This document shows, in pieces, positions 39,745-61,832 of a DNA stretch of 64,000 nucleotides. This DNA is from an uncultured Lachnospiraceae bacterium (lineage in GTDB: Bacteria; Bacillota; Clostridia; Lachnospirales; Lachnospiraceae). Numbering within the stretch: the stretch's first letter is position 1; each line of letters opens with the position of its first letter. Under the pieces are notes generated by a model. That model searched no databases, had not been told where the DNA came from, and saw only the letters and a program-made list of their open reading frames with translations. The DNA lies in assembly GCA_948989975.1 (NCBI GenBank), contig CARHSH010000001.1, positions 18,906 through 82,905 of the forward strand. Direction: 5' to 3'. A program made the position numbers and the translations under genes.

Positions 39745-39753
39745 AAAAATATT

Positions 39754-41047: not shown

Positions 41048-41079
41048 GCAGCAAGGAAGCTGCAGTAAATTCAAGGAGG
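41048..41079 (+). promoter_or_regulatory. CsrA-binding leader elements (BS1 hairpin plus BS2/SD) of flagellin 2
   Basis: Identical to the copy 1 leader. Confidence 0.5.
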
Positions 41080-41087
41080 AAAAAATT

Positions 41088-44712: not shown

Positions 44713-44792
44713 TAGGATCACATGATACAGGGCATTACAAAAAGCAGCGGGCGGCTGAAAATCAAATTTCAGCCGCCCGCGTTATGTATCTT

Positions 44793-46914: not shown

Positions 46915-47523
46915 AATAATCGCTTCTTTCTGATAATTATTTATAATGTATTAGTATATCACAGGAGTATAGCATGTAACAAGAATTTTTTGTAATGATT
47001 CCTGTTATTGATTTCTGTTATAAATAATAGAAATGGTTAGAATGAAATAATTCGTAAATGATTGTATTTAATATGTATAAAGTTAAATTAAGGATAAGCC
47101 GATAAAAAGAATAAGAGTTAAATTGCGTTTTCTATCAGCATGGAAGCTGTATTTTATTCAGGGAGGAAGAAGAAATGACGAAAAGGAAAGACATGCAGCG
47201 AAAAATTGCATGGGGGGGGAAAATCAGAATCTACTAAAAAGTGGAAAAAAATTCAAACTTTATATGGATTATCTCAAGAGACGTTAGGGGCAATTTTTTT
47301 GTTGCCTTTTTTTTGGTGTCTGCCGTTTGATCCGGTTATGGCTTGTAAAGGATATAAGTGTGTTGGGATAAGAATGGATAAGAATTGTTGGAAGGACGCC
47401 TATGTTTGAAACAAAGACAGCATGGGAAACGCAGTGAATATACTACAATTCTTTTTTTGCGTTTTATAACATTTTTTGCAACAGAAGATAATATGCCAAA
47501 ATAGCTGGGAAGAAGGAATTAAA

Positions 47524-49104
47524 ATGAATTTAGAAGCTGAATTTGAACGGTTAAAAACATGTTCCCGTATTTTGATTTGGGGCGGCGGTTATCATACGAA
47601 AGAGGCGCTAAGGTTTTATAAATCTTTTTTTAGGGAACGGGACATACAGATTGTAGATAAGAATAAGGCAGGCCAAAGCATAGAAGGATATAAAATTATT
47701 GCTTCAGATGAAGCAGATTATTCGATTGATTATGTTGTGATTATGTCGTCAATATACCATGATGAAATTGAATATGCTTTGCGGAACAGACATGGTTATC
47801 AAGGGGCAGTGATAGGTTTATATGCGTTTCGGAGAGTTCTTTTAAAACTGGATTCATATGAAGAATGTATTGGGCATATGGAAGATTTTGTGTCTCATAT
47901 GGAACAAGGCATAGCAAGTTATTCTTACGACTATATATTTCAAGAAAACTATAGCGTATATAAAAAAATAAGGCTATATGCGTTTTGGGCGTCTTCTATT
48001 GGTGAATCAGTCCGGTATTTATCGGCATATTATGAAACTGTTTTTAAGGATAAGGCAGAAGATGAATACTGCCTGTTAATTCCCTATATAAAAGGGAATG
48101 ATTTCGCGAATGGGCAATTTATAGAGGTTGTTTCCCGTACAGTTCCTATGGTTACATATTGCAACTGTCATTTTTGGGAGTATGCGGTGAAAAAGTACAG
48201 AGAGCGTTTTGATTTGACGTCTTATAATGAATTTAACGGTATTTTAGTGGATGCATATAATCAATTTGATGAACGGATTATAAACAGGACGTTTTGTGAT
48301 AAAAAGTTTCCTTTGATTGCCTATACGCCGGAAGAACGTAAGATGGCGGAATATAAATTAAGGCAAATGGGCGTTTTTGGAGATTTCGTGTGTATATTTG
48401 CAAGAGATAACCACTATTTGCAGCATCAGTATGGACAGGCTTATGGAATTAATGAAATAAGAAATATGGATATCAATTCTTTTAAATCTGCAGTGGATTA
48501 TTTGGAGGGACAGGGAGTAAAGGCAGTCCGCATGGGAAAAGTTGTCAACGGGCCGGTCAATCTGCCAAACTGCATAGATTATGCGGCGGATTTCCATAGC
48601 GACTTTATGGATTTATATTTATGCGGTAATTGCAAGTTTTATGCAGGGAGTTTGTCTGGGATTGTTGCGCTTGCCCAGCTTCAAAGCGCGCCTGTGGTTT
48701 TGCTCGGGGTGGTTCAGCTGGGGATTCACAATTCAATACCATATAGGAGCAGAGATATTTACGTCCCAAAGAAAATATATGACAAAAATAAGAAACGTTT
48801 TTTAAATTTTACGGAAATATGGGATGCGGAAATGGCCGCTAAGGACAAAATATCAAAATATTATGGGGAACACGGGCTTGAGTTTATAGAGCTTGGCAAA
48901 GAAGAAATAAAAGAAGCGATAGTGGAGATGAACGATAAATTAGATGGAGTGTATCAGGAAGACGAACAGGAAAAAGAACTTCAAAAGAAATATCATTTGC
49001 TGTTGGAAAACTGGATATTAGAGAATGGATACCAGTATTCTTATTTCTTGCATATTGACATAAGCGGCAGTTTTATTAAAAAGAATACATTTATGCTTGC
49101 ATAG
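47524..49104 (+). CDS. Hypothetical glycan-biosynthesis protein (526 aa; possible unusual glycosyltransferase)
   Basis: First gene of a long plus-strand operon. N-terminal ILIWGGGYHTKEAL...IVD Rossmann-like segment. The more likely start is MNLEAEFERL at 47524. Confidence 0.3.
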   Translation: MNLEAEFERLKTCSRILIWGGGYHTKEALRFYKSFFRERDIQIVDKNKAGQSIEGYKIIASDEADYSIDYVVIMSSIYHDEIEYALRNRHGYQGAVIGLYAFRRVLLKLDSYEECIGHMEDFVSHMEQGIASYSYDYIFQENYSVYKKIRLYAFWASSIGESVRYLSAYYETVFKDKAEDEYCLLIPYIKGNDFANGQFIEVVSRTVPMVTYCNCHFWEYAVKKYRERFDLTSYNEFNGILVDAYNQFDERIINRTFCDKKFPLIAYTPEERKMAEYKLRQMGVFGDFVCIFARDNHYLQHQYGQAYGINEIRNMDINSFKSAVDYLEGQGVKAVRMGKVVNGPVNLPNCIDYAADFHSDFMDLYLCGNCKFYAGSLSGIVALAQLQSAPVVLLGVVQLGIHNSIPYRSRDIYVPKKIYDKNKKRFLNFTEIWDAEMAAKDKISKYYGEHGLEFIELGKEEIKEAIVEMNDKLDGVYQEDEQEKELQKKYHLLLENWILENGYQYSYFLHIDISGSFIKKNTFMLA

Positions 49105-49153
49105 CATTCTGGCGGGAACAAAATTTGATGAATAAACAGGGGGAATTTGAATT

Positions 49154-50215
49154 ATGGCAGATAAAATCCGAATGGATTCGCACAAATTAATTTATCATCC
49201 AGAGAGGGTTGCGGCTTGGAAGCGTGGAGAAAATATATATCCGATTGAATTGGAAATAGGATTAACAAACGCCTGTAATCATAGATGCATTTTTTGCGCA
49301 GTGGATTATACAGGTTACAAACCGACAATGCTTGAGGCGGATCTTTTAAAATTAAGGATCAGTGAGTTTGCAGAAAAAGGAGTGAAATCTATTATATATG
49401 CCGGAGAAGGGGAACCGCTTTTAAATAAAGACGCGGCAGATATTATTAATTTCACGAAAAAAAGCGGAATAGATGCGGCGTTATCTACAAATGGAGCATT
49501 GCTTACGCCGGAAGCATCGAGAGACTGTCTGGCTTCTTTGACATGGATTCGTTTTAGTACGGCCGCAATTAGAGAAAAAACGTATGAGAAAATCCATCAA
49601 TGCCGGAAAGGAGAGCTTAAAACTGTTTTAAATAATATTCAGGAAGCAGTCCGGACGAAAAAAGATCAAGGGCTCAAAACGACGATTGGCGCGCAATTAT
49701 TGCTTCTGCCGGATAATAAAGATGAAGTTGTGGAGATGGCGAAGGAAATGAAAAAAATAGGAGTGGATTATTTTACGGTAAAACCATTTTCGCAGCATCC
49801 GTCAAGCGGCAATATCTTGCAAGTGGATTATCAGGAATTACTGGAATTGGAACGGGAATTAGAAGGAATTGGAACGGAAGAATTTAAAATATATTTCCGG
49901 GCGCATTCTATGAAGAAATTGGCATGTGAGCGCGGTTATAAGCAATGTCTGGCGCTGCCATTTATGGTATACATTGATGCGAAGGGGAATTTATGGCCCT
50001 GTATTGTGTTTATGGGGCAGGAACAGTTTAGTTATGGAAATTTATATAATGCATCATTTGAAGAAATATGGGAAGGAGAGCGGAGGAAGAAGCTGATTCA
50101 AGAGTTTTCCCAGATGGATTTAGAGAAAAATTGCAGGGAGTTGTGCAGGCTGGATGAAATGAATAAGTATCTCAATGATTTGAGAAATCCCGGACTTCAT
50201 GTAAATTTTATATAG
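49154..50215 (+). CDS. Radical SAM enzyme with Cys-rich (SPASM/twitch-like) C-terminus, paralogue A
   Basis: CNHRCIFC CX3CX2C motif; C-terminal CLALPFMVYIDAKGNLWPC. Confidence 0.7.
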   Translation: MADKIRMDSHKLIYHPERVAAWKRGENIYPIELEIGLTNACNHRCIFCAVDYTGYKPTMLEADLLKLRISEFAEKGVKSIIYAGEGEPLLNKDAADIINFTKKSGIDAALSTNGALLTPEASRDCLASLTWIRFSTAAIREKTYEKIHQCRKGELKTVLNNIQEAVRTKKDQGLKTTIGAQLLLLPDNKDEVVEMAKEMKKIGVDYFTVKPFSQHPSSGNILQVDYQELLELERELEGIGTEEFKIYFRAHSMKKLACERGYKQCLALPFMVYIDAKGNLWPCIVFMGQEQFSYGNLYNASFEEIWEGERRKKLIQEFSQMDLEKNCRELCRLDEMNKYLNDLRNPGLHVNFI

Positions 50216-50265
50216 TATCCGTTTATTCCAATAGGAGAATAAATTTTAAGAGTTAGGAGAGAACG

Positions 50266-51111
50266 ATGGATTTAAAAGAGCGGGCGGCTGAAATAAGAAA
50301 AATGATTTTTAAAATGGCATACCGGGGAGGGAGCGGGCATTTGGCATCGGCTTTTTCGATTGTGGAAATTTTAACGGTTTTATATTTTGGGGGAATTTTA
50401 AATATAGATCCGAAAAATCCGGATTGGGCGCAAAGGGATAAATTGATATTAAGCAAGGGACACGCGAGTTTGGCATTATATAGTGTATTGGGTATGAAGG
50501 GATTTTTTCCACAAAAAGAGTTACAGACTTTTTGCAAGCCGGGTTCAGAATTCGGAGGAGAACCCAGAATGGGGCATATACCGGGCGTAGAGGCGACTAC
50601 AGGCTCGCTTGGGCATGGGCTTTCATTTGGCGTGGGGATTGCAATGGCGCATAAGATGAATGGGGAAGCGAACAGGACATATGTGATAATTGGAGATGGC
50701 GAATGCCAAGAAGGAAGTATATGGGAAGCTGTAATAGCGGCGCCGCACCACAAACTAGACAATTTGACAGTGATTTTAGATAATAACAGGCTACAGGCAA
50801 TGGGGAAAGTGGAGGATATTCTTGCGTTGCGCCGCCTGCGGGAAAGCTGGGAAAATTTCGGCTGGGGCATCGCAACAGTAGATGGGCACGATATAGAAAA
50901 GCTTTGTAAATGTCTGGATAAGGACAGACAAACGGAAGATGGCAGACCGCATTTAATTTGTGCGGATACAGTGAAAGGAAAAGGCGTTTCCTTTATGGAA
51001 AGCGAGCCCATCTGGCATTATCGGATGCCGAATGAACAGGAATTAGAAATTGTATTGCAAGATTTGGGCATGACAAGAGAGGAGCTGATTCAATGCGAAA
51101 TGAATATTTAG
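50266..51111 (+). CDS. tktA: Transketolase, N-terminal (TPP-binding) subunit
   Basis: GSGHLASAFS, GHASLALY, IIGDGECQEG motifs; 281 aa. Confidence 0.8.
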   Translation: MDLKERAAEIRKMIFKMAYRGGSGHLASAFSIVEILTVLYFGGILNIDPKNPDWAQRDKLILSKGHASLALYSVLGMKGFFPQKELQTFCKPGSEFGGEPRMGHIPGVEATTGSLGHGLSFGVGIAMAHKMNGEANRTYVIIGDGECQEGSIWEAVIAAPHHKLDNLTVILDNNRLQAMGKVEDILALRRLRESWENFGWGIATVDGHDIEKLCKCLDKDRQTEDGRPHLICADTVKGKGVSFMESEPIWHYRMPNEQELEIVLQDLGMTREELIQCEMNI

Positions 51112-52016
51112 CGGAACTATATCATCTTGCAAAAAATGATCGGAATGTGCTTTCTTTAGTGTCCGATAATGGCATGATTGTATATGATGAATTTCGGGCG
51201 GCTTTTCCAGAGCAATATTTTAATTTTGGCATTTCAGAATGCCATATGATTGCGGCGGCGGCAGGAATGGCGACATGTGGGAAAATTCCTTTTGCATATA
51301 CAATTAGTTCATTTTTGGCGTACCGGGCATACGAATTTTTAAGGCTGGACGTATGTCTGGAAAATTTGAATGTAAAGATAGTTGGAATAGGCACAGGCGT
51401 ATCTTATGGCTATTTAGGCCCTACGCATCATACGACAGAGGATTTGGCTCTTTTGCGATCACTGCCTAATTTGACTATATTTTCTCCGGCAAGCCCAATG
51501 GAAGCGCGCGAGGCGGTACGGGCTGCATATCAAATAAAGGGACCTGTCTATATCCGGCTTGGCAGCAGCGGGGAACCGGAGGTTCATACGGAAAAATTTT
51601 CTTTTGAAATTGGGAAAGGGCAGGTCATATTTGACGGGCATGACATTGCGCTGATAACTTCAGGGGCAATCACGGCTGAAGTGAAAATAGCGGCGGAGCG
51701 GCTTATGGAAGAAGGAATATCAGTTAAGCTGATTAGTATGCACACGATAAAGCCTTTTGATGAGGATCTTATAGCAAAAACGGCTGAAAAGGTTTCTAAA
51801 TTAGCTGTAATAGAAGAACATAATATTATCGGCGGGTTAGGAAGCGCAGTGGCTGAGACATTAGCAGACAGGCAGATTGCAATTCCTTTTTATAGAATTG
51901 GGTTATATGATCAATTTGCAAAAGGCTATGGAACGGGACAACAGGTACGGATGCAAAATAGGCTGGACAGTGAAGGGATTTATCAACAAATCAGCCAATA
52001 TGTAAAGGAAGGATGA
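51093..52016 (+). CDS. tktB: Transketolase, C-terminal (pyrimidine/C-terminal domain) subunit
   Basis: 307 aa; overlaps the N-subunit gene by 19 nt, typical of split tkt. Confidence 0.8.
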   Translation: MRNEYLAELYHLAKNDRNVLSLVSDNGMIVYDEFRAAFPEQYFNFGISECHMIAAAAGMATCGKIPFAYTISSFLAYRAYEFLRLDVCLENLNVKIVGIGTGVSYGYLGPTHHTTEDLALLRSLPNLTIFSPASPMEAREAVRAAYQIKGPVYIRLGSSGEPEVHTEKFSFEIGKGQVIFDGHDIALITSGAITAEVKIAAERLMEEGISVKLISMHTIKPFDEDLIAKTAEKVSKLAVIEEHNIIGGLGSAVAETLADRQIAIPFYRIGLYDQFAKGYGTGQQVRMQNRLDSEGIYQQISQYVKEG

Positions 52017-53131
52017 CAAAAATGGAGTCAGAAAAATTAATATTAGACGGCAGTAAAGTATTATGGCACAAAGATAGAATAGAGCAATGGAAAAAGGGGG
52101 AGCGTTTTGCGCCTGTTACGATTGATTGCGCGCTGACTACGAAATGCAGTTACCGCTGTGTGTATTGTTATGGAAAAATGCAGTGCATAAACCAGTCGGA
52201 TAATCTTGACGAAGAAACAATTTTACGCTTTTTAGAGGATGCGGCGGAAATAGGAGTAAAAGCGGTTAGTTTTGTAAGCGATGGAGAAAGCACATGTAAC
52301 CCACATTTGAAAAAAGCGGTTTTACATGGCAAGAGCCTTGGATTAGATATGGCTCTTGGCACAAATGGCTTTTTGTTAAAAGATGAGGAATTAGAGGAAA
52401 TTTTGCCGGCGCTTACTTATTTGCGTTTTAATATATCGGCTGGGGAGAGGGAACGATATGCCGAAATTCATGGCTGCGCCTTAAAATGCTATGATAAAGT
52501 AATTGAAACGATGAAAAAAGCGGTAGATATTAGGGAGAAGAAAGATCTGGCGGTTACAATTGGAATGCAAATGGTTTTAATGCCAGATTTTGCAGATCAG
52601 ATTCTTCCGCTTACAAAGTTAGGCAGAGAGATTGGCGTGGATTATCTCGTGATTAAACATTGCAGTGATGATGAGGAAGGCACGCTTGGCGTAAATTACG
52701 AAAAATATGATGCCGTGATTCCGGTTTTAAAGGAAGCGGAAACTTATTCTACGGATAAGTATCAGGTTTCGGCAAAATGGTCAAAGATTTTAAGCCATGG
52801 GAAGAAAAGTTACTGTAAGTGTTTTGGAGCCCCCTTTATTCTTCAAATGTCGGGTACGGGCCTTGTGGCTCCTTGTGGAATGTTTTTCAATGAGAAATAT
52901 AGTAAATACCATATTGGAAATATTAAGGAAAAGAGATTTAAAGAGATATTTGAAAGCGACAGGTATTGGGAAGTTATGAAAATGATAACAGACGAAACTT
53001 TTGATCCAAACCGCGATTGCGGTACGCTCTGTCTTCAGCATAAAACAAATGAGGCATTGTGGAAGATCTATCAAACAGGGACAATTCCAAAGAGTCCGGA
53101 AATTGAACCGAATCATATTAATTTTATATAA
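52013..53131 (+). CDS. Radical SAM enzyme, paralogue B of the 49154 gene
   Basis: CSYRCVYC motif; the N-terminus HKDRIEQWKKGE parallels HPERVAAWKRGE of paralogue A; ATGA overlap with tktB. Confidence 0.7.
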   Translation: MTKMESEKLILDGSKVLWHKDRIEQWKKGERFAPVTIDCALTTKCSYRCVYCYGKMQCINQSDNLDEETILRFLEDAAEIGVKAVSFVSDGESTCNPHLKKAVLHGKSLGLDMALGTNGFLLKDEELEEILPALTYLRFNISAGERERYAEIHGCALKCYDKVIETMKKAVDIREKKDLAVTIGMQMVLMPDFADQILPLTKLGREIGVDYLVIKHCSDDEEGTLGVNYEKYDAVIPVLKEAETYSTDKYQVSAKWSKILSHGKKSYCKCFGAPFILQMSGTGLVAPCGMFFNEKYSKYHIGNIKEKRFKEIFESDRYWEVMKMITDETFDPNRDCGTLCLQHKTNEALWKIYQTGTIPKSPEIEPNHINFI

Positions 53132-53170
53132 ATTTCAGAAATCTGGAAAAATAAGCATGGAGGCTGAAAA

Positions 53171-54700
53171 ATGGCACTTGTTGTGACAAAAGCGGAATTT
53201 AGGAATATAAGAAAGGAATTGCGGGCGGAAGGGAAGAAAGTGGTTCTCTGCCATGGCGTATTTGATTTAGTGCATCCCGGCCATATCATTCATTTTGAAG
53301 AAGCAAAAAAGATGGGGGACGTTTTAGTGGCGTCTGTCACGGCGGCAAAATATGTGAGAAAAGGTCCGGATAGGCCGTATTTTGGAGATGAGATGCGTCT
53401 GAAATTTTTATCTTCGATTGCGTATATTGATTATATTCTTTTGTCAGAGGGCTTTACTGTAGATGATATTATTGAAGCGGCGGAGCCGGACTTGTATGTA
53501 AAAGGCTCGGAGTATCAGGCGCAAGAAGATGACATTACCGGAAAGATTGCCGGAGAAATAGAGCTGGTCCGTAAACATGGAGGGGAAATTGCTTATACAG
53601 GCGGGCAGGTGTTTAGTTCAACGAAACTAATCAACCATGCTTTTCCATCACTTTCTGAGGAAGTGAAACAATTTATGAAATCATTTTCAGATAAGTATAG
53701 TTTATCTGAAATCAGAGCGCTGGCGGAAAAAATTTCGGGCTTTAAGATAGCGGTAATTGGAGACGTAATTATAGATGAATATATTTATTGCAATGTACAG
53801 GGGTTAATGTCGAAAGACAGGGGATATTCTGCCCGTTATAGATATGTGGAGCAGTATTTAGGCGGTTCGTTAGCCGTGGCGAGGCATATTGCCTCATTTT
53901 GTGACGACGTCACTCTTTTGAGCGTTGTAGGGAAAGAGGAGGCGGTACATAGCCGGATGTTAGACGAACTTGGCGATAAGATGAGGATAGACGTAACGTT
54001 TAGCGATGTTTTTGAAACCATTATAAAAACACGGTACGTTTCCATGAATGAAAAACGGGAAGAGCTTGATAAAATTTTCGCTGTAAATAACCTTCCTGTA
54101 TATATGCGCATTGATAAACCTGCATTAGATAAGTTTAAAGAAAAAATAAAAGAGAAAATAGAACAGTGTGACGTGGTTATTTTGTGTGATTTTGGGCATG
54201 GGCTGATAGATGAAGAAGTGATGGATTTGATTCAGTCTAAGGCGAAGTTTTTAGCGTTGAACTGCCAGACTAATTCATCGAATTATGGAAAAAATTTAAT
54301 TACAAAATATAAACGGGCAGATGTATTTGCGATTGACCAGAAAGAATTGGGGCTGGCATTTGCGAATTACCGTTTAGATGAGCAAGAGCTTCTTCAGAAG
54401 TTAGAAAAACATTTGGACTGCCATGGGTGGCTGACACAGGGATCCCAAGGGGCAGTTTCGATTGAAGATGGAGAAATAAAACATTGTCCGGCATTTGTTT
54501 TAAAAGTGAAAGACACCATTGGAGCAGGGGATGCGTTCTTTTCCATTGCAAGCTTATTTGCGGCAGCAGGCGCTTCCATGGAGATGGGAACATTTATGGG
54601 AAATATTGCGGGGGCATTGGCGACAAATATCGTAGGAAACAAAAAAGGCATTGATAAAGTAGATGTACTGAAGTACGCTTCTACTTTACTTAATATATGA
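53171..54700 (+). CDS. hldE: Bifunctional heptose-1-phosphate adenylyltransferase (N-terminal) and PfkB-family heptose-7-phosphate kinase (C-terminal). It is HldE/RfaE-like with reversed domain order.
   Basis: The N-terminus VLCHGVFDLVHPGHIIHFEEAKKMGDVLV...PDLYVKGSEY aligns with E. coli RfaE domain II. The C-terminus carries the GAGDAFFSIASLFAAAG PfkB signature. Confidence 0.6.
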   Translation: MALVVTKAEFRNIRKELRAEGKKVVLCHGVFDLVHPGHIIHFEEAKKMGDVLVASVTAAKYVRKGPDRPYFGDEMRLKFLSSIAYIDYILLSEGFTVDDIIEAAEPDLYVKGSEYQAQEDDITGKIAGEIELVRKHGGEIAYTGGQVFSSTKLINHAFPSLSEEVKQFMKSFSDKYSLSEIRALAEKISGFKIAVIGDVIIDEYIYCNVQGLMSKDRGYSARYRYVEQYLGGSLAVARHIASFCDDVTLLSVVGKEEAVHSRMLDELGDKMRIDVTFSDVFETIIKTRYVSMNEKREELDKIFAVNNLPVYMRIDKPALDKFKEKIKEKIEQCDVVILCDFGHGLIDEEVMDLIQSKAKFLALNCQTNSSNYGKNLITKYKRADVFAIDQKELGLAFANYRLDEQELLQKLEKHLDCHGWLTQGSQGAVSIEDGEIKHCPAFVLKVKDTIGAGDAFFSIASLFAAAGASMEMGTFMGNIAGALATNIVGNKKGIDKVDVLKYASTLLNI

Positions 54701-54738
54701 TGATTCTAAAGATATATTTATAAAATGGAGGGTAAGAA

Positions 54739-56379
54739 ATGAAGATTTTGTTGGTGGTTCCGCAATACTATAGCCGGAAAGAACGATATTATCAAATGCC
54801 ATTAGGCTTAGCGTATGTGAATGCAGCTCTGCGGGAAGCAAATTTAGATGTGCAATGCCTGAATATGAACCATATTGAAGCAGAAGACGCCTATTCAGTT
54901 TTAGCTGAACGGGTAGTAAATTCCAATATTGACGTTGTCCTTTGCGGCGGAATAAGCCCGCTTTGGAAAACGATTAAAAAAGTGTTTGATACAGTTAAAA
55001 GGGCAAAAGCTTCCATAATTACTGTGGGGGGGGGTGGAGCCTTTACGTCGGAGCCTCTTATTTCAGCGGAACTTCTTGAAGTAGATTATGCTGTAATTGG
55101 AGAAGGGGAGATTACAGATGTAGAGCTTATTCAAACGTTGATGGCGAATCAGAATGTAAGCAATGTAAAAGGAATTGTATATAAAACGCCGGACGGATAT
55201 AGGCAGACGGCTCCGAGGGAAGAAATTGCCGATGTGGATTCCATTCCATTTCCATGCTATGAGGGGTTTGACATGGATTTATATTTAGAAAATCAAATGG
55301 TGAGCGATGAATATTATTCTTTTTATTCGGACAAGCCGAGAATTATGCCGATGATTTTAGGCAGGTCATGCCCTTATCAATGCAAATTTTGTTTTCACCC
55401 TATAGGAAATAAATACAGGGTGCGAAGTCTGGATAATTTTTTTATGGAACTGGATCAATGGAAGAATAAGTATGCTCCAACCTGTATTTTGATATTAGAT
55501 GAATTATTTAGCGCAAGCGTTGAAAGAGTGTATGAGTTTTGTGAAAGAATAAAAGGATATGAGATAAAATGGATTGTCCAAATGCGGGTGGATATTATCA
55601 CGAAAGAGTTATTGCAGACAATGCGGGACGCCGGATGCCTCAGCATCAGTTATGGACTTGAAAGTTTTAGCCCTGCAGTTTTGAAAAATATGAGAAAACA
55701 TATCTCTTTAGCAGACATAGAAAACGCTTTAAAATTGACTTATGAAGCAAAAATAGACATTCAGGGCAATTTTATTTTTGGAGACGAGTTAGAAAATGAG
55801 CATACGATATATGAAACATTGCGGTTTTGGTTTCAGCATCCAGAATATAAAATTAATTTGGGGTGGATAGAGACATATCCGGGATGCGGCTATTATCGGG
55901 AATTATCGAAAAATTGGAGCGTTGAGGAGAAAAAAGCATTTTTAGAAATGAGTGAATGGCTGACAAATTTAACAAAGATGCCAGATGAAGAATATGGGAA
56001 ATATAAAGTTGTGATTCAACTGCTTACATTTTATTATAACCCAGATTGTGTGAAAGAAAAAGAGACGCGGACAGACGAAAATGGCGATGGGATTATTGAA
56101 GCGAAGTGCGTGCATTGCGGTTCGGTAAATCGGTGGGCAGGAGTTAAAAAATATCTGCTAAATCAATCGTATTTTAAATTATGCTGCCGGAAATGCAATC
56201 ATAGGAATGTGATTTACAGCAGGAAAGAAAGGTTAAAAAATTGGGATTTAATTCTGCCATTATGTGAGAAAATGGCTTTGGCAACAAAGGAAGATGAATT
56301 TATTAAAGCGGTAAACGCTTTATATGAGACGTATATGGTGACGCATGACCCAGAAAATCCATTTCCTGTTTTGTTTTAG
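54739..56379 (+). CDS. B12-binding-domain radical SAM enzyme (class B, probable sugar C/O-methyltransferase or rearrangement enzyme)
   Basis: N-terminal cobalamin-binding-like domain; CPYQCKFCFHP CX3CX2C motif; 546 aa. Confidence 0.65.
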   Translation: MKILLVVPQYYSRKERYYQMPLGLAYVNAALREANLDVQCLNMNHIEAEDAYSVLAERVVNSNIDVVLCGGISPLWKTIKKVFDTVKRAKASIITVGGGGAFTSEPLISAELLEVDYAVIGEGEITDVELIQTLMANQNVSNVKGIVYKTPDGYRQTAPREEIADVDSIPFPCYEGFDMDLYLENQMVSDEYYSFYSDKPRIMPMILGRSCPYQCKFCFHPIGNKYRVRSLDNFFMELDQWKNKYAPTCILILDELFSASVERVYEFCERIKGYEIKWIVQMRVDIITKELLQTMRDAGCLSISYGLESFSPAVLKNMRKHISLADIENALKLTYEAKIDIQGNFIFGDELENEHTIYETLRFWFQHPEYKINLGWIETYPGCGYYRELSKNWSVEEKKAFLEMSEWLTNLTKMPDEEYGKYKVVIQLLTFYYNPDCVKEKETRTDENGDGIIEAKCVHCGSVNRWAGVKKYLLNQSYFKLCCRKCNHRNVIYSRKERLKNWDLILPLCEKMALATKEDEFIKAVNALYETYMVTHDPENPFPVLF

Positions 56380-56396
56380 GAAAAGGATTTCCGCCA

Positions 56397-57092
56397 TTAA
56401 ATTGTGACATTAAAGTATTGTTGGGCCTTACAGTATTTTTTCTGCCTGTTTCTGATTAAGACACTGCCGTCAGGGTTACGCAGCACAACGGAATCATCGG
56501 AGACCGGCTGTCCATATACAAACGCATCTACTCCAATGGATACACGGTTTCCGATTGGTTCATTGCCTATAATTTTAGCTCCGGCGGCTAAGTAGAGCCC
56601 TTTTCCGAGTTTTGGGACAGTTTCGCCGACAGGGCTTTCACCGGTATTGATGGTGACATTTTGGCCTATTACAAGAAAATCACTGTAAGCTGCATTGCCA
56701 ATTACGCTTCCTACCGGATGTGTAAGGAAGAATATTTCCGGCAGTTTGCCTTTGTAAGAGATAAAAAAACTATGTAAAGTTTTATTCAAGTAAATTAATT
56801 TGTCACAGACAGATTTGTTTGCGGAAAGCTCCCACAGTGAGTTAGCCCAAAAATATAAAAACTGGGCATACTGGTCAGAATGCAGATGCGAGAAAAATGT
56901 TTCGCCTTGGTTATCTGAATATGCGGAATTTTTAATAAAACGGAAGCAATGCTCTGTCCGTTCTAAGGCGCGTTCAAAAGCGGCGTCAACGTCGCTGCCT
57001 TTTAGAGTATGAGTATTGCGATCCGGAAAAAAAAGCTCTAACTGATGCAGCGTATATGTTTGAAGTTCTTGTTTCGGTAATGATAGGTTCAT
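56397..57092 (-). CDS. Hexapeptide-repeat (LbH) acetyltransferase
   Basis: C-terminal left-handed-helix repeats (GSVIGNAAYSDFLVIGQNVTIN...IGNRVSIGVDAFV). The ATG at 57092 overlaps the upstream stop (ATGA). Confidence 0.55.
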   Translation of the reverse strand: MNLSLPKQELQTYTLHQLELFFPDRNTHTLKGSDVDAAFERALERTEHCFRFIKNSAYSDNQGETFFSHLHSDQYAQFLYFWANSLWELSANKSVCDKLIYLNKTLHSFFISYKGKLPEIFFLTHPVGSVIGNAAYSDFLVIGQNVTINTGESPVGETVPKLGKGLYLAAGAKIIGNEPIGNRVSIGVDAFVYGQPVSDDSVVLRNPDGSVLIRNRQKKYCKAQQYFNVTI

Positions 57093-58061
57093 TTCTTCTT
57101 CCTTTTTTGAATATAAATTGGCTCTAAAATAAAACGTGGGAGAATTGCGTATGGCCATACATGGAACCATATCGTAGGATATTTGTATGTATTTAAAAAT
57201 AATATCCATTTATCGTCCATATCATACTGATTATCCTCTACGCTGTATTTTAGGATAGAATCTTTAATAAATCCTTTCATGTCAGTAAGAAAGATTTTTT
57301 TCATCTGGCTTTTTGGAAAACCGGCTTTTACGGCTGTTTGGAGCAAAAGTCTTTTATATTGCTTTACCCAGACTTCAAATAAATTAAATCCGCCGCTGTT
57401 ATTATTTTTTGCGGCTAAATAGGGGGCTTTTGTCAGGATCATTTTAGTATTTTTGCCTGAGAGAATGTGAAATACGATATGCGCGTGTAGAAAATGGGTT
57501 CCAAAATATTTCTCAGGATGCTTTATTTGTTTAAATTTGCTCATTTTCAGAACGGTTGCAGATATATACGTTACATAAACGCCAATGTAATTCATCAGAA
57601 GGGTTTTATCGTAAGTAATCAGATCGTTTGTTTCCCTAAGTTTTATTCTTGGCGCTTTTCTAATGTCCGGATTGAATGTCTGTGTTGAATATGTAAAAGA
57701 ATTTATATTAATATAGGCTGGTCTTTCTGTTTTTATCAGATATAATATTTTTTTTATCGCTCCGGGCAGCAATATGTCATCGTCCGAGAGAAACTGTATA
57801 TATTCGCCGTTCGCTTTTTGGAAACAGTTAAAAAAATTTTTATCCATACCCAAATTTTTTGAATTACGATAATAACGTATCTTATGTTCTTTGCAATATT
57901 TTTTCATTACTTTTGGGGTCTCGTCTGTGGAAGCGTTATCTGATACAAGGATTTCAACGCCGTCTTCCAACTGCCCTAGCGCGCTTTCTAATGACTGGCA
58001 TAATAAATGACAGCGGTTATAGGTAGGGATAGCGACTGTCAGTATAATTTTTTGTCCCATG
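57089..58061 (-). CDS. GT2-family glycosyltransferase
   Basis: ILTVAIPTYNR...ILVSDNASTD GT-A motifs; start at MGQKI with RBS GAGG. Confidence 0.7.
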
Positions 58062-58064
58062 ATC

Positions 58065-58997
58065 TTACCTCTTTCTTTTGGTTTCATAATACTGGATTGT
58101 TTTTTGGATGCCTTCTTCAAAGGGAATTTCAGGCTTCCAGCCGGTATCTCTTGTAAGAGGTTCAATATTGATACAAGAACTTGGCATTATGCCGGGGGAG
58201 CTGATTTTTCTTTCGGGAGGGGGAGTTTTTTCTCCAATGCCTAAAGGAAGCGATGGGTTTATCATGTCCCGAATAGTTAAGACGTATTCCCGAAGTGTTT
58301 TGTGCGTTCCGCTTCCTATTCCATATGTAATATTATGCCTGCCTTTCTCTCCAATTTTAATAATTGCTTTTGCTACATCTGATACATAGACAAAATCCCA
58401 ATTAGACTGGAGATTGCCATAGACAGGGTATTTGCCATCTAAAAGAGTGGTAATCGTATAAGTCAGGATATTGTCTTCTGTTCTTCCTTCCCCATATGTG
58501 CTTGGAAGAACAGTCCAAATCATATCCTGCCCTAATTGCGCGGCAACGGCTTCTAACAGATAGTGGACGGAAGTTTTTGTGGCTCCATAGATGTCAATGG
58601 GCGTCTGTTTCCTTGAAAAATCAATGACGCATTCATTATAAACATATTCTGCCACTGTGCCTGCGGCCAGAAATAGTTTGCATTTTAAATATTTAGAGAG
58701 ACGTAACATATCCAGAGAAGTTTCGATATTGCTTAATTGCAAAGGAATGTTGTTTTTTTCTTTCCCAGAAACGCCTGCCCAGCCAAGATGATAAAATATA
58801 TCATATGTTTTTCCAGACAGCCTTTGCGCCAGTTCTTTAAATTGATAGCCGGCAGTTATTGTTTTTACGGAAGAATTATGAAATGGCATAGAGGAGGGGG
58901 AGGAGGTCAGGACGGTTACGTTAGCGCCTGATTTTAATAATTCCGCAACAACATATCTGCCGATAAATCCGGTTCCTCCTGTAAGAATGGCTTTCAT
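58065..58997 (-). CDS. NAD(P)-dependent SDR nucleotide-sugar epimerase/reductase
   Basis: TGGTGFIGRYV; YGATK dyad; 310 aa. Confidence 0.65.
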   Translation of the reverse strand: MKAILTGGTGFIGRYVVAELLKSGANVTVLTSSPSSMPFHNSSVKTITAGYQFKELAQRLSGKTYDIFYHLGWAGVSGKEKNNIPLQLSNIETSLDMLRLSKYLKCKLFLAAGTVAEYVYNECVIDFSRKQTPIDIYGATKTSVHYLLEAVAAQLGQDMIWTVLPSTYGEGRTEDNILTYTITTLLDGKYPVYGNLQSNWDFVYVSDVAKAIIKIGEKGRHNITYGIGSGTHKTLREYVLTIRDMINPSLPLGIGEKTPPPERKISSPGIMPSSCINIEPLTRDTGWKPEIPFEEGIQKTIQYYETKRKR

Positions 58998-59007
58998 ATT
59001 CTTCCTC

Positions 59008-60021
59008 CTACTGTTCCATGCGTTTTAGAATGATGTCTGCATAGCTGTCTATATCGTCGGTTGTATTCGCCGACAGGCTTTCGCAATGTCTGCAGATTGG
59101 TATATCGTCTTTCCTCTTTTTTAAGTGGAGTTTTTGGTACTGGCAAAGTTTTTCGCCATTCCAAATATCCGCAATTTTTTCGGTTTTTAAATCGCCTAAA
59201 ATATATTCTGTTTTCCAGTCTACACAGCACAGATGCGCAATGCCGGAATGGTTTATTACCATCGTAGTAAATAAAAATGGGCAGACTTCTTTTGGTTGTA
59301 GCTCCTGGCCGTAAGTGCCTTTATGGGCGTTGTTTATTTTTGCGCCGATATTTGTGTCCTGCCAAAGGGTGGAAGAAATGGTTTCTACAAATATTTCGTC
59401 AGACACTTTTTCAAATGTCTGGTAAAAATTCTGTTTTTCTGTTTCGGTATAACCAATATCGCTGTATTTAATAAAGATTTTACAATTCTGTTTATTTTTA
59501 TAGAAAAACTCGATTTTTTTATAGAAATCCTGAAAGTCCATTTCGTATTGGCATACGTCTTTGTACTGTTGTTCATTAATTCCATTTACTGAAATATTTA
59601 ATATGTCAAGACCTGCCTCAATAAGCTCAAGGCTGAGCGTTTCGTTTAGAAGCGTGCCGTTGGTCGTGATTTCAATACATTCTGCGGCCTCTGCTTTTTT
59701 GGCATAGGCTGCCATTTGGGCAATCTTGGGATTCATCAAGGGCTCTCCGATTTTAAACAGCCTTAATTTTTTGATTTTTTGTCTGCCCCAGCAAGAGACA
59801 ATGTCGTCTATGATTTTTTGGAAAAGTTCCAAAGACATTGCGCCAAATGTTACATTAGATTTTTTTATGGTTTCCATGTCTGAGTGGAAACAAAAATTGC
59901 ATTTTAAATTACAGGCGCTGCATACGTCAATTTGAATTGCAAAGGGCGCGGAAAGCGGCAGAACTTCCTGTAACGGGGTTCTTTCCCTTGCGTAAATTTT
60001 GGCTCTTCTTATTGCGCTCAT
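59008..60021 (-). CDS. Radical SAM / SPASM-domain enzyme
   Basis: CNLKCNFC motif and C-terminal Cys cluster (CPF...HLCCVDW...CRHC). Confidence 0.7.
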   Translation of the reverse strand: MSAIRRAKIYARERTPLQEVLPLSAPFAIQIDVCSACNLKCNFCFHSDMETIKKSNVTFGAMSLELFQKIIDDIVSCWGRQKIKKLRLFKIGEPLMNPKIAQMAAYAKKAEAAECIEITTNGTLLNETLSLELIEAGLDILNISVNGINEQQYKDVCQYEMDFQDFYKKIEFFYKNKQNCKIFIKYSDIGYTETEKQNFYQTFEKVSDEIFVETISSTLWQDTNIGAKINNAHKGTYGQELQPKEVCPFLFTTMVINHSGIAHLCCVDWKTEYILGDLKTEKIADIWNGEKLCQYQKLHLKKRKDDIPICRHCESLSANTTDDIDSYADIILKRMEQ

Positions 60022-60047: not shown

Positions 60048-61832
60048 TTAAGGCAGCATAAGTTTTTTTATTTCATCTTCTTCTAAGAAAGGATACATAT
60101 CATGTAAAGCGGGAGTTTTCATTTTGCCGTTTTCATCTATGCGTGACATGACTTTTGGAATAACAGGATCGTCAAATGCCTGCAATACTTCCAGTATCAT
60201 ATGCTTTGTTGTCTGCATAAAAGCATGTAAGCAGGAATCCACTTCGCCATTATTATGGCAGCAAAGATATTTAAACCCGAATGTGTCTGCAATTTTTTTA
60301 AAATCAGGGAAACTTACTCCGGTATCCGGCGTACAGCCAATGTATTCTCCTTGAAAGAAGTTTTTTGAAGTCTGCCGGATTGCCCCATAACCTTCATTTG
60401 AAAAGATAACGATTGAAATTGGAAGATCGTACTGGGCAATCGTTTGAAGTTCTTGTAGGTTCATCATTATGCTTCCGTCTCCTGTAATGCAGTATACGCC
60501 GGATTTGGAGGAGATGGCGGCGCCTATGGCCGCGGGAATATCGTATCCCATAGATCCGCAAGTATAATTTGTAAGAATCCGTTGGTTTCTCTTTTGGGTT
60601 CCAATTTGTAATTTTGCAGTATTTGCGCTGTTGTTACCAAGCGCTAAAATGCTGTTATCCGGTTCATGTGAATGGAACTGTTTCCAAAAATAGTAGGAAG
60701 AAACCCTGTCTGACAAATGAACGCCATGCCGGATTGCTTCATATGGAGAAAAGCGTTCTTTTAGGTTTTGGCAGTAGGAAAGCCATTCTTTATGCGGCAT
60801 ACAGGGGATGACGCTCTGTCTGGCAGTTTCAAAAAACTGATTTAGGTCTATATGGAGGCTCTTTTGGATTTTAAGCCCCGGTTTTAGGGCTTCGTTTTTG
60901 TCAGCGTCTATCATATAGATTTTTGCATTTGGGGCGAAGCCGTCTTGGTTAAACCCTGTCTGCCGGAATCCCAAACTATTTCCTAAAGTTAAGATTGCAT
61001 CTGCGTTTTGCAAAATAAAATTTCCGGATCTTGATCCCACATTTCCGGAGGAGCCGAAATAAAGAGGATGCTCCATATAGAGGTTATCGGCTACCCATGC
61101 GCCTCCAATTACAGGGAGCCGCATAGAATCAATAAAACTTAAAAACGCTTCCATACAGTTTCCGCTTCTAATGCCGGAGCCTGCAAGGATGCAAGGGCGT
61201 TTTGCAGACTGGAATTGTTGCAGAACAGATTCTATATCTTCTTTGGGAAGATGAGGGAGGGCGCTTTGATATTCTTCCGGTTCATATAATTCGCTTTCTT
61301 CGATATTTGCGCTCTGGATATCCTGTGGGACGTCTAACCAAACGGGTCCCCGCCTTCCGTCCATAGCGATATGAATTGCTTTAACCAATTCTCTCTTTAC
61401 GGCGTATGGATCAGTCAGCATTGTGGCATATTTAGTCATATTTTGAACAGATGGGATAATTTCAAATTCTTGCAAGCCACGATAACGTAAAGGAAGGCCT
61501 GATTTTGGGACGGAAATTTCATAACGGACTTGTCCAGACAACACAATCATGGGCAGACTGTCCTGCCATGCTCCCATCACGCCTGTTATGGCGTTGGTGG
61601 AACCGGGGCCAGAGGTGACGCAGACCGCCGCCATTTTTCCGCTGTATCTTGCATAGGCTTCTGCCGCCATGGCGCACGCCTGTTCGTGGTGGTTAAAGTA
61701 TTTATTCATTTTCGGACATTTTAGCAAAGCGTTGTCTAAAAACATCGCGCCTCCGCCAACGACAGCAAAACAGTCTATAATTCCGTATTCTGTCAGTGTG
61801 TCCATAATGATGTCAGCCACTCGTTTTAACAT
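60048..61832 (-). CDS. Thiamine-diphosphate enzyme of the acetolactate-synthase large-subunit / YerE-like family
   Basis: 594 aa; TPP-enzyme N-terminal and C-terminal domains (GGGAMFLDNA..., ITGDGSIMMNLQEL). Confidence 0.65.
   Translation of the reverse strand: MLKRVADIIMDTLTEYGIIDCFAVVGGGAMFLDNALLKCPKMNKYFNHHEQACAMAAEAYARYSGKMAAVCVTSGPGSTNAITGVMGAWQDSLPMIVLSGQVRYEISVPKSGLPLRYRGLQEFEIIPSVQNMTKYATMLTDPYAVKRELVKAIHIAMDGRRGPVWLDVPQDIQSANIEESELYEPEEYQSALPHLPKEDIESVLQQFQSAKRPCILAGSGIRSGNCMEAFLSFIDSMRLPVIGGAWVADNLYMEHPLYFGSSGNVGSRSGNFILQNADAILTLGNSLGFRQTGFNQDGFAPNAKIYMIDADKNEALKPGLKIQKSLHIDLNQFFETARQSVIPCMPHKEWLSYCQNLKERFSPYEAIRHGVHLSDRVSSYYFWKQFHSHEPDNSILALGNNSANTAKLQIGTQKRNQRILTNYTCGSMGYDIPAAIGAAISSKSGVYCITGDGSIMMNLQELQTIAQYDLPISIVIFSNEGYGAIRQTSKNFFQGEYIGCTPDTGVSFPDFKKIADTFGFKYLCCHNNGEVDSCLHAFMQTTKHMILEVLQAFDDPVIPKVMSRIDENGKMKTPALHDMYPFLEEDEIKKLMLP

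Follow-up and report, generated by a model that had tools for sequence, protein, structure and literature searches.

A candidate radical SAM and thiamine diphosphate pathway for elaborating nucleotide-heptoses, next to the flagellin genes of a Lachnospiraceae bacterium

Why should four radical S-adenosylmethionine (SAM) enzymes be encoded next to the flagellin genes of an uncultured Lachnospiraceae bacterium? The question is raised by a 64 kb stretch of its DNA, called the window below, for which an earlier note, made from the letters alone, had proposed radical chemistry on a nucleotide-heptose of flagellin glycans. We compared this island with loci fetched from other genomes and metagenomes (labelled L0xx where a label is needed). 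We consider it probable, at roughly 60%, that the island is composed of two sugar-tailoring modules for flagellin O-glycosylation, one at 44793-56379 and the other at 56397-62812, each pairing a radical SAM enzyme of the twitch type with a thiamine diphosphate (ThDP)-dependent carbon-carbon ligase. The pathway would be anaerobic, would combine radical and ThDP chemistry to elaborate a nucleotide-heptose, and would serve flagellin glycosylation here without being restricted to flagella. Support for the sugar reading comes from comparative genomics and not from biochemistry, and its chemical steps are those that we infer.

On the 3′ side of fliD, two flagellin genes (39679 and 41046) and a gene for a Maf-type glycosyltransferase (42790) are followed by three transcription units. 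The first, on the minus strand, encodes GmhA-like and GmhB-like proteins and a GalE-like short-chain dehydrogenase/reductase (SDR), and ends at a bidirectional hairpin (44747-44780). The second diverges from it on the plus strand and encodes a TIGR04372 glycosyltransferase, radical SAM enzyme A (rSAM_A), the two halves of a transketolase-like enzyme (TK_N and TK_C), radical SAM enzyme B (rSAM_B), an HldE-like enzyme and a B12-binding radical SAM enzyme (B12-rSAM). The third, convergent and again on the minus strand, encodes an SDR (61925), a ThDP enzyme resembling acetolactate synthase (ALS) and YerE, the radical SAM enzyme rSAM_C, a second SDR (58065), a family-2 glycosyltransferase (GT2) and an acetyltransferase. 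Inside the units, genes overlap or are separated by gaps of about 39-51 nt or less. The first two units make up module 1:

44793..45776, minus strand: GalE-like extended SDR (Pfam Epimerase and GDP_Man_Dehyd)
45773..46336, minus strand: GmhB-like HAD-IIIA phosphatase (NF006506 match; syntenic in 16/34 loci)
46333..46914, minus strand: GmhA-like SIS-domain sugar-phosphate isomerase (TIGR00441 match; syntenic in 22/34 loci)
47476..49104, plus strand: TIGR04372-family glycosyltransferase, first gene of the plus-strand operon (TIGR04372 at 174 bits, cut-off 45; the ATG at 47524 may be the true start)
49154..50215, plus strand: rSAM_A, twitch-type radical SAM enzyme of 353 aa, the core heptose-linked member (Pfam Radical_SAM and SPASM)
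50266..51111, plus strand: TK_N, transketolase-like N-terminal (PP-domain) subunit, with a non-canonical active site (Transketolase_N)
51093..52016, plus strand: TK_C, transketolase-like C-terminal (Pyr and C domain) subunit (Transket_pyr and Transketolase_C)
52013..53131, plus strand: rSAM_B, twitch-type paralogue of A, 372 aa (Pfam Radical_SAM and SPASM)
53171..54700, plus strand: HldE-like bifunctional enzyme with swapped domain order (CTP_transf_like at residues 27-118, PfkB at residues 192-485)
54739..56379, plus strand: B12-rSAM, class B radical SAM enzyme of 546 aa (Pfam B12-binding and Radical_SAM; C-terminal four-cysteine, zinc-ribbon-like element)

The evidence that carries the sugar reading is synteny. 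Relatives of rSAM_A were fetched with their surroundings from 21 genome and 53 metagenome loci, and the window proteins were mapped onto these by tblastn and blastp. Neighbours were counted in the 34 loci that had an orthologue of rSAM_A (at least 37% identity) and at least 10 kb of flank. The HldE-like gene was present in 28 of them, the GalE-like SDR in 26, the GmhA-like gene in 22, the GmhB-like gene in 16, the transketolase-like pair in 25 and a second A-type radical SAM gene in 28. The most conserved protein of the cassette was the SDR (59-85% identity across phyla). Loci of the A family came from Lachnospiraceae, Eubacteriaceae, Butyrivibrio, Selenomonadaceae, Prevotella, Planctomycetota, Myxococcales, Omnitrophota and Gallionellales, and the 34 counted loci span six phyla (Firmicutes, Bacteroidota, Planctomycetota, Myxococcota, Omnitrophota and Proteobacteria). 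Since it recurs across phyla, the arrangement is not a chance grouping.

The second radical SAM gene was either an orthologue of rSAM_B (38-84% identity) or a third paralogue, B′, which is about 25% identical to A and 22% to B, shares their N-terminal motif and has an HVNF(V/I) tail. The transketolase-like pair was never found without one of these two, and six loci had A and heptose genes with neither transketolase nor B. We concluded from these counts that the cassette consists of a core (GmhA, HldE, GmhB, SDR and A) and an add-on (a ThDP enzyme plus B or B′). An Omnitrophota locus (L014, 13186-16773) carries, at the transketolase position between the HldE-like gene and the rSAM_B orthologue, the alpha/beta pair of a pyruvate dehydrogenase E1 component (PDH-E1), which is a non-orthologous replacement of the ThDP component.

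The closest relatives of rSAM_A in the genome collection are from Lachnospiraceae. Identical proteins occur in NCBI records of metagenome-assembled genomes named 'Eubacterium sp.' (MCI9426221-35) and on 200-500 public contigs from human-gut metagenomes. More than 4,000 relatives of the A family are detectable. In the records seen, relatives bear only the names 'radical SAM protein', 'transketolase' or 'cyclic pyranopterin phosphate synthase', so that a common pathway goes mis-annotated or unannotated.

The cassette is longer in many gut loci that have B′, such as L034 (13927-16891) and L047, where the next genes encode a SAM methyltransferase, a DegT-type aminotransferase and a PglD-like N-acetyltransferase. 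After these come an rSAM_C-like gene and a TIGR04372-like glycosyltransferase gene. The extra genes suggest an amino, N-acetylated variant of the product.

What kind of radical SAM enzymes are these? The four genes described by the earlier note (at 49154, 52013, 54739 and 59008) are indeed intact open reading frames, and all their Pfam domains score above gathering thresholds, PF04055 (cut-off 29.5 bits) giving 68 bits for A, 61 for B, 55.5 for C and 61 for B12-rSAM. Its description of A and B as paralogues flanking a split transketolase-type pair was borne out by an end-to-end alignment (27% identity, E 1e-52); rSAM_C is remote from both (E 6e-7 to A, 0.35 to B). The two motifs that it had pointed out were recovered as well: CX3CX2C in all four genes, and HxxRxxxWKxGE at the N-terminus of A (H15, R18, W22-K23, G25-E26) and of B (H19, R22, W26-K27, G29-E30). 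Family alignments were built from 54 distinct A-family, 17 B-family and 20 C-family sequences. Residues D8, K11 and H15 of A are conserved over all 54, and both A and B terminate in H(V/I)NFI.

The label "SPASM-type", given together with Cys-rich C-termini, had to be narrowed. The Pfam SPASM hidden Markov model does match A, B and C, but each has four conserved C-terminal cysteines and not seven. A full SPASM domain was defined by seven C-terminal cysteines (CX9-15GX4C...CX2CX5CX3C...C) and two auxiliary clusters; a twitch domain, as in BtrN or MoaA, is a truncated SPASM with three or four cysteines and one auxiliary [4Fe-4S] cluster. Besides C41/C45/C48, A conserves C265, C283, C327 and C331; the corresponding residues of B are C270, C288, C336 and C340, and the spacing in both is C-x17-C...C-x3-C. 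By their cysteine patterns A, B and C are twitch-like, each with one predicted auxiliary-cluster site. B carries in addition a family-conserved Cys217, absent from A and B′, which would fit a hydrogen-atom donor of the epimerase type.

An AlphaFold2 model of A was obtained with a mean local confidence (pLDDT) of 79 and a pTM of 0.84. Its best fold match in the PDB was DesII (8hzv, E 8e-16, TMq 0.67), followed in order by SuiB, SkfB, BlsE, CteB, MoaA, viperin and anSME. DesII and BlsE act on nucleotide or nucleoside sugars. Among NCBIfam models, none came near its cut-off for A, B or C, and no equivalog was found for any of the four radical SAM enzymes; with the DesII model TIGR04426 (cut-off 450 bits), A scored 38 bits and B 33.9, which places both outside that family.

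Is the pair encoded between A and B a transketolase? In domain content, the earlier note was right to call it a split transketolase: TK_N matches Transketolase_N, TK_C matches Transket_pyr and Transketolase_C, and the closest PDB relatives are the subunits of the characterised split transketolase of Carboxydothermus hydrogenoformans (6yak for TK_N, E 7.5e-72; 6yaj for TK_C, E 2e-66). The canonical substrate-binding residues are gone, however, and it is no ordinary transketolase. In E. coli numbering, Ser385, His461 and Arg520 are the residues which we take, from the yeast and E. coli structures, to bind the substrate phosphate; Asp469 presumably contacts the acceptor C2-OH and His100 the donor C1-OH. 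Around Ser385 the Carboxydothermus enzyme reads DADLSKST and the window protein SD-NGMI; in the region of His461, Glu468 and Asp469 they read ATHAGLTVGEDGASHQ and GIGTGVSYGYLGPTHH, respectively; at Arg520, LGRSG and LGSSG; and at His100, QGHP and GGEP, a change of His to Glu. Equivalents of S385, H461, E468/D469 and R520 are missing from the window TK_C and from 29/29 distinct TK_C orthologues, and GGEP is found in most TK_N orthologues of the fetched loci. The ThDP/Mg motif is kept in TK_N (GDGECQEG...LDNN), as is the Pyr-domain glutamate in TK_C (GISE). With the whole-protein model NF004559 (cut-off 488 bits), the halves score 265 and 200 bits separately, 465 in sum. Because the phosphate- and aldose-binding residues are replaced, the pair is probably a transketolase-fold ThDP enzyme acting on a different pair of substrates, and not a supplier of sedoheptulose-7-phosphate. 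Judged by these residues, it is best read as a ThDP-dependent C2-transferase acting on a sugar carbonyl.

There are precedents for such a role. According to a 2025 review, three classes of ThDP enzymes are known or proposed to C-branch keto-sugars, namely YerE-like enzymes, alpha-KADH2 E1 pairs and split-gene transketolases (PMC12247030). The first act in yersiniose and erwiniose biosynthesis, the second in that of aldgamycin and kibdelomycin, and the third are proposed for miharamycin/amipurimycin (PMC12247030, PMC9306805). For the transketolase class, the review counts 13 candidate ketone-accepting sequences, each of them from a Streptomyces secondary-metabolite cluster, and not one has been characterised in vitro (PMC12247030).

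Which sugar the cassette activates was approached through the GmhA-, GmhB- and HldE-like proteins. The earlier note had named ADP-heptose, and the homology to GmhA, GmhB and HldE is clear, but all three fall below the NCBIfam equivalog cut-offs: the GmhA-like protein with 90.8 bits against 209 (TIGR00441), the GmhB-like protein with 149.5 against 178 (NF006506) and 127 against 149.6 (a second model), and the HldE-like protein with 150 against 521 (PRK11316), 120 against 345 (rfaE domain I) and 91 against 181 (domain II). The domain order of the last is also swapped, with the nucleotidyltransferase N-terminal and the PfkB kinase C-terminal. ADP-heptose is accordingly a likely, not a proven, substrate. 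The SDR at 44793 has the motifs SSS...YxxxK, and its best PDB relatives are 4-epimerases, UXS and Pal. A DmhA-like 4,6-dehydratase was considered for it and rejected; since there is no TDE motif and its relatives are GalE/UXS/Pal-like, we take it as an epimerase or oxidoreductase.

B12-rSAM is a class B enzyme, with a B12-binding domain (PF02310, 47 bits against a cut-off of 32) followed by PF04055. Its AlphaFold2 model (pLDDT 93.5) has TsrM, MgmA, AprD4, OxsB, CysS and TokK as fold neighbours. It falls in no curated family, the best being BchE (128.6 bits against 481), with AprD4 at 62 against 500. Invariant cysteines are C211/C215/C218 and a C-terminal CxxC...CxxC formed by C457, C460, C483 and C486. 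The closer relatives of this protein are found among sugar genes. The gene with 58% identity (L079) lies inside the same cassette, between TK_N and TK_C and beside a flagellin gene, and that with 47% (L083) also lies inside it, between B and the HldE-like gene. At 55% identity (L081, 7128-13904), the gene stands between two SDR genes in a GDP-heptose-type cluster (SIS isomerase, GHMP kinase and an NTP-transferase-HAD fusion) devoid of A, B and transketolase, and at 52% (L082) beside an SDR in another sugar cluster. Close relatives of B12-rSAM thus track heptose pathways of two activation types. The context at 41% identity (L080) is unrelated to sugars, so the association holds for closer relatives only (at least about 47% identity).

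Some further observations concern this enzyme and its loci. Its CxxC...CxxC element is predicted to form a small beta-ribbon, and we have not seen a similar element noted for class B enzymes. The 90% cluster of the protein includes many forms of 413 aa, on dozens of contigs, so an N-terminally shortened variant or an alternative start is common. L079, where the gene is inserted between the transketolase halves (9168-12582), is a related flagellar locus. The cluster in L081 also holds a fucosyltransferase (GT11) and an APS kinase.

The third transcription unit forms module 2:

56397..57209, minus strand: hexapeptide-repeat acetyltransferase, CysE/WcaB-like (NCBIfam matches below cut-offs; probable true start near 57092)
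57089..58165, minus strand: GT2 (Glycos_transf_2)
58065..58997, minus strand: extended SDR of the epimerase/reductase type (Pfam Epimerase; in L075 and L077, too, rSAM_C and the ThDP enzyme come with an SDR)
59008..60021, minus strand: rSAM_C, BtrN-like twitch radical SAM enzyme of 337 aa (Pfam Radical_SAM and SPASM)
60048..61832, minus strand: YerE/ALS-like ThDP enzyme (TPP_enzyme_N, M and C domains)
61925..62812, minus strand: extended SDR, RmlD/epimerase-like, first gene of the operon (Pfam Epimerase and RmlD_sub_bind; the orthologous position is filled in L075)

rSAM_C had been counted into the same island as the other three. It is indeed present there, but belongs to a module of its own, together with a YerE-like ThDP enzyme and two SDRs, and any link of rSAM_C to heptose is hypothetical. 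Its invariant cysteines are C37/C41/C44 plus C247, C265, C310 and C313. The resulting spacing, C-x17-C...C-x2-C, equals that of BtrN, and residues 255-325 match the BtrN twitch domain (E 2e-7). The ThDP enzyme scores far below all ALS equivalog cut-offs, and its best PDB match is 8rph, a 'thiamine pyrophosphate-binding protein' (E 2.6e-100). In every locus examined, rSAM_C adjoined an ALS-like ThDP enzyme and an SDR. These loci were another Lachnospiraceae flagellar locus with Maf (L075/L076) and a sugar cluster of a deltaproteobacterial symbiont (L077/L078), which also encodes a DegT protein, an SDR of the dehydratase type, an NTP-transferase, an HpcH aldolase and a sugar C-methyltransferase. 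A second, independent module joining a radical SAM and a ThDP enzyme is thereby formed by rSAM_C.

In L075 (12843-18048), a KK002-like Lachnospiraceae flagellar locus, genes for a sulfatase/phosphodiesterase-family protein, a choline kinase, a LicC-like NTP-transferase and a BCCT transporter lie 3′ of the module. These genes suggest phosphocholine decoration of the flagellin glycan.

Upstream of module 1, the flagellar locus of the window includes FlgN, FlgK, FlgL and FliD genes (27.6-36.9 kb), followed by:

37940..39469, minus strand: Glyco_trans_1_2-type glycosyltransferase adjoining the flagellin genes (Pfam PF13524; homologues beside flagellin and cassette in L028, L005 and L079)
39679..40866, plus strand: flagellin 1, presumed glycan acceptor (Flagellin_N and Flagellin_C)
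41046..42200, plus strand: flagellin 2, presumed glycan acceptor (Flagellin_N and Flagellin_C)
42790..44712, plus strand: Maf-type (motility-associated factor) flagellin glycosyltransferase (MptE-like and Maf_flag10_N; Maf flanks the cassette in L005, L008 and L028)
44747..44780, between Maf and the minus-strand heptose operon: strong, bidirectional terminator-like hairpin (14-bp stem, 10 GC pairs)

The Maf assignment is based on PF01973 (120 bits), a weak PF20157 match and the flagellin genes immediately upstream; the protein is below the cut-off of the PseD-type model NF050051. Maf islands of Campylobacter, Helicobacter, Aeromonas and Clostridium botulinum make CMP-pseudaminic or CMP-legionaminic acid via PseB-I/Leg enzymes. 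Genes for pseudaminic or legionaminic acid (Pse/Leg) biosynthesis were looked for across the 64-kb window and none was found. Maf, the TIGR04372 glycosyltransferase, GT2 and the Glyco_trans_1_2 protein are candidate transferases to flagellin. Flagellin or Maf genes lie beside the cassette in L002, L005 (three Maf genes), L008, L028 and L079. The role in flagellin glycans put forward by the earlier note thus fits this locus, where flagellins, Maf and four glycosyltransferases adjoin, but not the family as a whole: as the cassette is also present in Prevotella and in environmental lineages (Planctomycetota, Myxococcales, Omnitrophota), it is not restricted to flagella.

How could these enzymes work together? 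From homology and synteny, the GmhA-, HldE- and GmhB-like enzymes would produce a nucleotide-activated sugar of the glycero-manno-heptose type, which the GalE-like SDR would epimerise or oxidise at C4. rSAM_A would then abstract a hydrogen from a sugar C-H and convert CH-OH to a carbonyl, with or without loss of a neighbouring OH, as DesII, BtrN and AprD4 do. The analogy to YerE, to alpha-KADH2 and to the proposed split transketolases of miharamycin biosynthesis suggests that the transketolase-like pair places a two-carbon unit on the sugar carbonyl, giving a branched or chain-extended C9 sugar. rSAM_B or B′, as their strict co-occurrence suggests, would partner the ThDP step, either making its acceptor or processing its product, and B12-rSAM would bring an optional further change to the heptose skeleton, most likely a C-methyl group. 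Module 2 (SDR, YerE-like enzyme, rSAM_C, SDR, GT2 and acetyltransferase) would by a like logic make a second, acyl-branched sugar, and Maf and the other glycosyltransferases would attach the products to flagellin. In both modules, the twitch enzymes would generate or process the sugar carbonyl for the ThDP enzyme, by dehydrogenation (as BtrN and DesII) or diol dehydration (as AprD4). A carbonyl made in this way would explain why each ThDP enzyme of the island has a radical SAM neighbour, why non-homologous ThDP enzymes can be swapped beside B, and why E1/E3-type deoxygenation genes are absent. The types and the order of the reactions, the identity of the nucleotide and the position attacked are those that we infer.

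Several points weigh against this scheme. The type of reaction catalysed by the radical SAM enzymes (dehydrogenation, dehydration, epimerisation or C-C formation) is not readable from sequence; Cys217 of B is typical of enzymes that epimerise by hydrogen donation, and class B enzymes are not all methylases, AprD4 and OxsB being among the fold neighbours of B12-rSAM. The model of rSAM_A is of only moderate quality at its pLDDT of 79, and comes from a shallow alignment. The margin of DesII in the fold search is small, the peptide maturases SuiB and SkfB following at E about 5e-14, so that the fold of A favours a sugar substrate without deciding for it. Given the sub-cut-off scores of the GmhA-, GmhB- and HldE-like proteins, the sugar might not be a glycero-manno-heptose. 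As for module 2, no nucleotidyltransferase was found for it within the window.

A more specific version of the scheme is that the island provides an oxygen-independent route from NDP-heptose to a nine-carbon, nonose-type sugar, standing in for pseudaminic or legionaminic acid as the substrate of Maf. rSAM_A would here carry out a diol-dehydratase- or dehydrogenase-type reaction on the exocyclic C6-C7 glycol, giving an aldehyde or ketone; the transketolase-like enzyme or PDH-E1 pair would add a C2 unit to this carbonyl, with pyruvate or hydroxypyruvate as the probable donor, and so extend or branch it; rSAM_B or B′ and B12-rSAM would set stereochemistry and add a C-methyl group; and the aminotransferase and N-acetyltransferase of loci such as L034 would complete a Pse/Leg-like decoration. 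We regard this version as speculative and rather doubtful. If true, bacteria would possess a family of higher-carbon sugars that is widespread and was not recognised before, and primary glycan biosynthesis would offer a new combination of radical SAM with ThDP catalysis.

Four other explanations of the island were weighed. In the lincomycin pathway (LmbR/N/P/K/O), an octose formed by a transaldolase can be the substrate of homologous enzymes. On this precedent, the transketolase-like pair might act first and build a higher ketose phosphate, which the GmhA/HldE/GmhB-like enzymes would isomerise, phosphorylate and activate before the radical SAM enzymes tailor it; proteins below the equivalog cut-offs, as these are, could take a ketose phosphate other than a heptose. 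We nevertheless find this order unlikely. The residues with which canonical transketolases bind phosphate are lost in 29/29 orthologues, 9 of the 34 loci have the core (GmhA/HldE/SDR/A) without any transketolase, and its place can be taken by a PDH-E1 pair, an enzyme whose substrate is pyruvate rather than a ketose phosphate.

Alternatively, it may be that the radical SAM enzymes are anSME-like protein maturases, acting not on a sugar but on flagellin or on an enzyme of the island such as the ThDP enzyme. The fold of A has anSME among its neighbours, the top NCBIfam match, although far below cut-off, is the 'tungsten cofactor oxidoreductase maturase' TIGR04317, and B co-occurs strictly with a ThDP enzyme. 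This is quite improbable, since A is found without transketolase or B in L006, L007, L009 and L035, and in non-flagellated lineages (Prevotella and Omnitrophota), with the heptose-activation genes present in both cases. Moreover, B pairs with two non-homologous ThDP enzymes, transketolase-like and PDH-E1-like, and B12-rSAM also tracks an independent GDP-heptose-type cluster.

Could the split transketolase simply be a pentose-phosphate enzyme feeding sedoheptulose-7-phosphate to GmhA, its position without mechanistic meaning? Databases do call the pair 'transketolase', its closest solved relative is the genuine Carboxydothermus enzyme, and sedoheptulose-7-phosphate is the heptose precursor. We hold this to be very improbable. 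The Carboxydothermus enzyme retains the residues in question, whereas here the losses of S385, H461, E468/D469 and R520 are conserved and that of H100 to Glu mostly so; the co-occurrence with a second radical SAM enzyme is strict; a PDH-E1 pair takes the place of the transketolase in L014; and the B12-rSAM gene sits between the transketolase genes in L079.

Finally, the idea that the twitch/SPASM enzymes are maturases of ribosomally synthesised and post-translationally modified peptides (RiPPs) that merely lie beside sugar genes can draw on weak NCBIfam matches that include StsB, PapB, WgkB and AlbA, and on SuiB, SkfB and CteB among the top fold and sequence neighbours, but it is scarcely credible, as all maturase matches are far below family cut-offs, no RiPP recognition, protease or transporter genes are near, the synteny is with heptose genes across phyla, and the top fold match of A is a nucleotide-sugar enzyme. 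The earlier note had seen no precursor peptides nearby, and a listing of all open reading frames of at least 20 aa in 46.9-64 kb agrees: gaps of about 39-51 nt, or overlaps, leave no room for them between genes. We retain the two sugar-tailoring modules as the preferred reading.

Some features of the window lie outside this argument. The only free space, the 562-nt divergent promoter region at 46914-47476, contains candidate precursor reading frames, which were rejected as TTG-initiated and unsupported. The called starts of the acetyltransferase and GT2 genes produce overlaps of 120 and 100 nt; later starts are likelier, because internal ATGs near 57092 and 58060 give overlaps of 4-6 nt, typical of translational coupling. 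A low-complexity, Ser/Pro/Cys-rich reading frame of 252 aa (50253-51011, minus strand) antisense to TK_N is almost certainly spurious, being embedded in a well-supported gene. No Rfam match at the gathering threshold, and hence no sign of a riboswitch or other RNA control, was obtained across 36-64 kb of the window. Further upstream, a gene for a surface protein of 2,577 aa (19394-27127, plus strand) has a HAD hydrolase gene on one side and flgN on the other, an unusual place for so large a glycoside hydrolase; its domains are GH95 alpha-L-fucosidase-type, F5/8 type C, Big_2, FIVAR, Listeria-Bacteroides repeats and BspA-type leucine-rich repeats. A Ter-type stress cluster (5757-15634) encodes PRTase_2/TRSP, StiP cysteine protease/PELOTA, a TIM-barrel C-C bond lyase, TelA, two TerD proteins and two YceG_bac proteins, one of them fused to a trypsin-like protease, and is followed by a P-type cation ATPase gene. 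The genes at 3194-5751 (plus strand), for an MBOAT membrane O-acyltransferase and then an AlgX-like SGNH protein, are a two-gene pair for O-acylation of polysaccharide or teichoic acid.

How much of this is new? The earlier note held that radical chemistry on a heptose had not been described for flagellin glycans, and a search of open-access full text gave the same result: no paper was found that links radical SAM enzymes with heptose, with HldE/GmhA, with flagellin glycosylation islands or with transketolase in glycan pathways. Radical SAM tailoring of sugars and ThDP-dependent sugar branching are already known kinds of chemistry. What appears undescribed in that literature is a widely conserved cassette coupling the two to heptose activation, a dedicated radical SAM superfamily made of A, B and B′, a transketolase-fold enzyme stripped of its phosphate-binding residues, and the use of such a cassette in flagellin glycosylation islands of abundant gut commensals. 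Database annotation does not recognise these features either.

The scheme predicts a heptose-derived sugar, so far unknown, on the flagellin of these commensals. Flagellin is a key immune ligand, and NDP-heptoses are agonists of ALPK1 (PMC11461863, PMC11573728), so the way in which the host recognises Lachnospiraceae may be affected by the pathway. It also predicts natural transketolase-type enzymes, from outside Streptomyces, that would use non-phosphorylated sugar carbonyls as acceptors, a class which is sought after and uncharacterised in biocatalysis (PMC12247030). That one island should twice combine a twitch enzyme with a ThDP ligase, the two versions being non-homologous, suggests an anaerobic strategy of general use for producing a keto acceptor.

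Compared with known systems, the island resembles in layout the Maf-type islands of Campylobacter, Helicobacter, Aeromonas and Clostridium botulinum, in which Maf and sugar genes also lie directly beside tandem flagellins, but the heptose, radical SAM and ThDP cassette is found here in place of the Pse/Leg genes. With heptose activation of the GmhA/HldE/GmhB type, it shares the predicted SIS isomerase, PfkB kinase, HAD-IIIA phosphatase, cytidylyltransferase-like nucleotidyltransferase and extended SDR; the SDR is, however, GalE-like and not HldD-like (112 bits against a cut-off of 274.6), and the host is a Gram-positive bacterium without lipopolysaccharide.

For the radical SAM enzymes, DesII (TDP-4-amino-4,6-dideoxy-D-glucose deaminase and TDP-quinovose dehydrogenase) is a parallel to the role proposed for A: its substrate is a nucleotide-activated sugar, in which a C-H/C-X pair becomes a ketone. 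A is only about 15% identical to DesII, and differs by its four-cysteine twitch site, its D-K-H...W-K-x-G-E N-terminus, its H(V/I)NFI tail and its genomic partner, a heptose instead of a TDP-hexose pathway. BtrN, the 2-deoxy-scyllo-inosamine dehydrogenase and founding twitch enzyme, has a single auxiliary [4Fe-4S] site (C-x17-C...C-x2/3-C) and oxidises, independently of NAD, a carbohydrate-like secondary alcohol, as is proposed here. Its alignment with rSAM_C is limited to the twitch domain, and BtrN acts on a free aminocyclitol in an aminoglycoside cluster, with no ThDP partner and no surface-glycan locus. B12-rSAM has in common with the GenK/Fom3-type C-methylases and the AprD4 diol dehydratase an N-terminal B12-binding domain of the Rossmann type ahead of a radical SAM barrel, and a sugar pathway; its invariant C-terminal CxxC...CxxC and its place in heptose clusters of two activation types are its own.

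As to the sugar-branching ThDP enzymes, the proposed role is the same, the transfer of an acyl or hydroxyacyl carbanion onto a keto-sugar. All three classes are met in this one system, the transketolase-like and ALS/YerE-like enzymes in the window and PDH-E1 in L014. The cassette differs in having no E1/E3-type 3-deoxygenation genes. The split transketolases of Streptomyces are secondary-metabolite enzymes, whereas those described here belong to primary surface-glycan (flagellin) loci of gut anaerobes and several other phyla; they are tied to a heptose pathway and always have a radical SAM partner.

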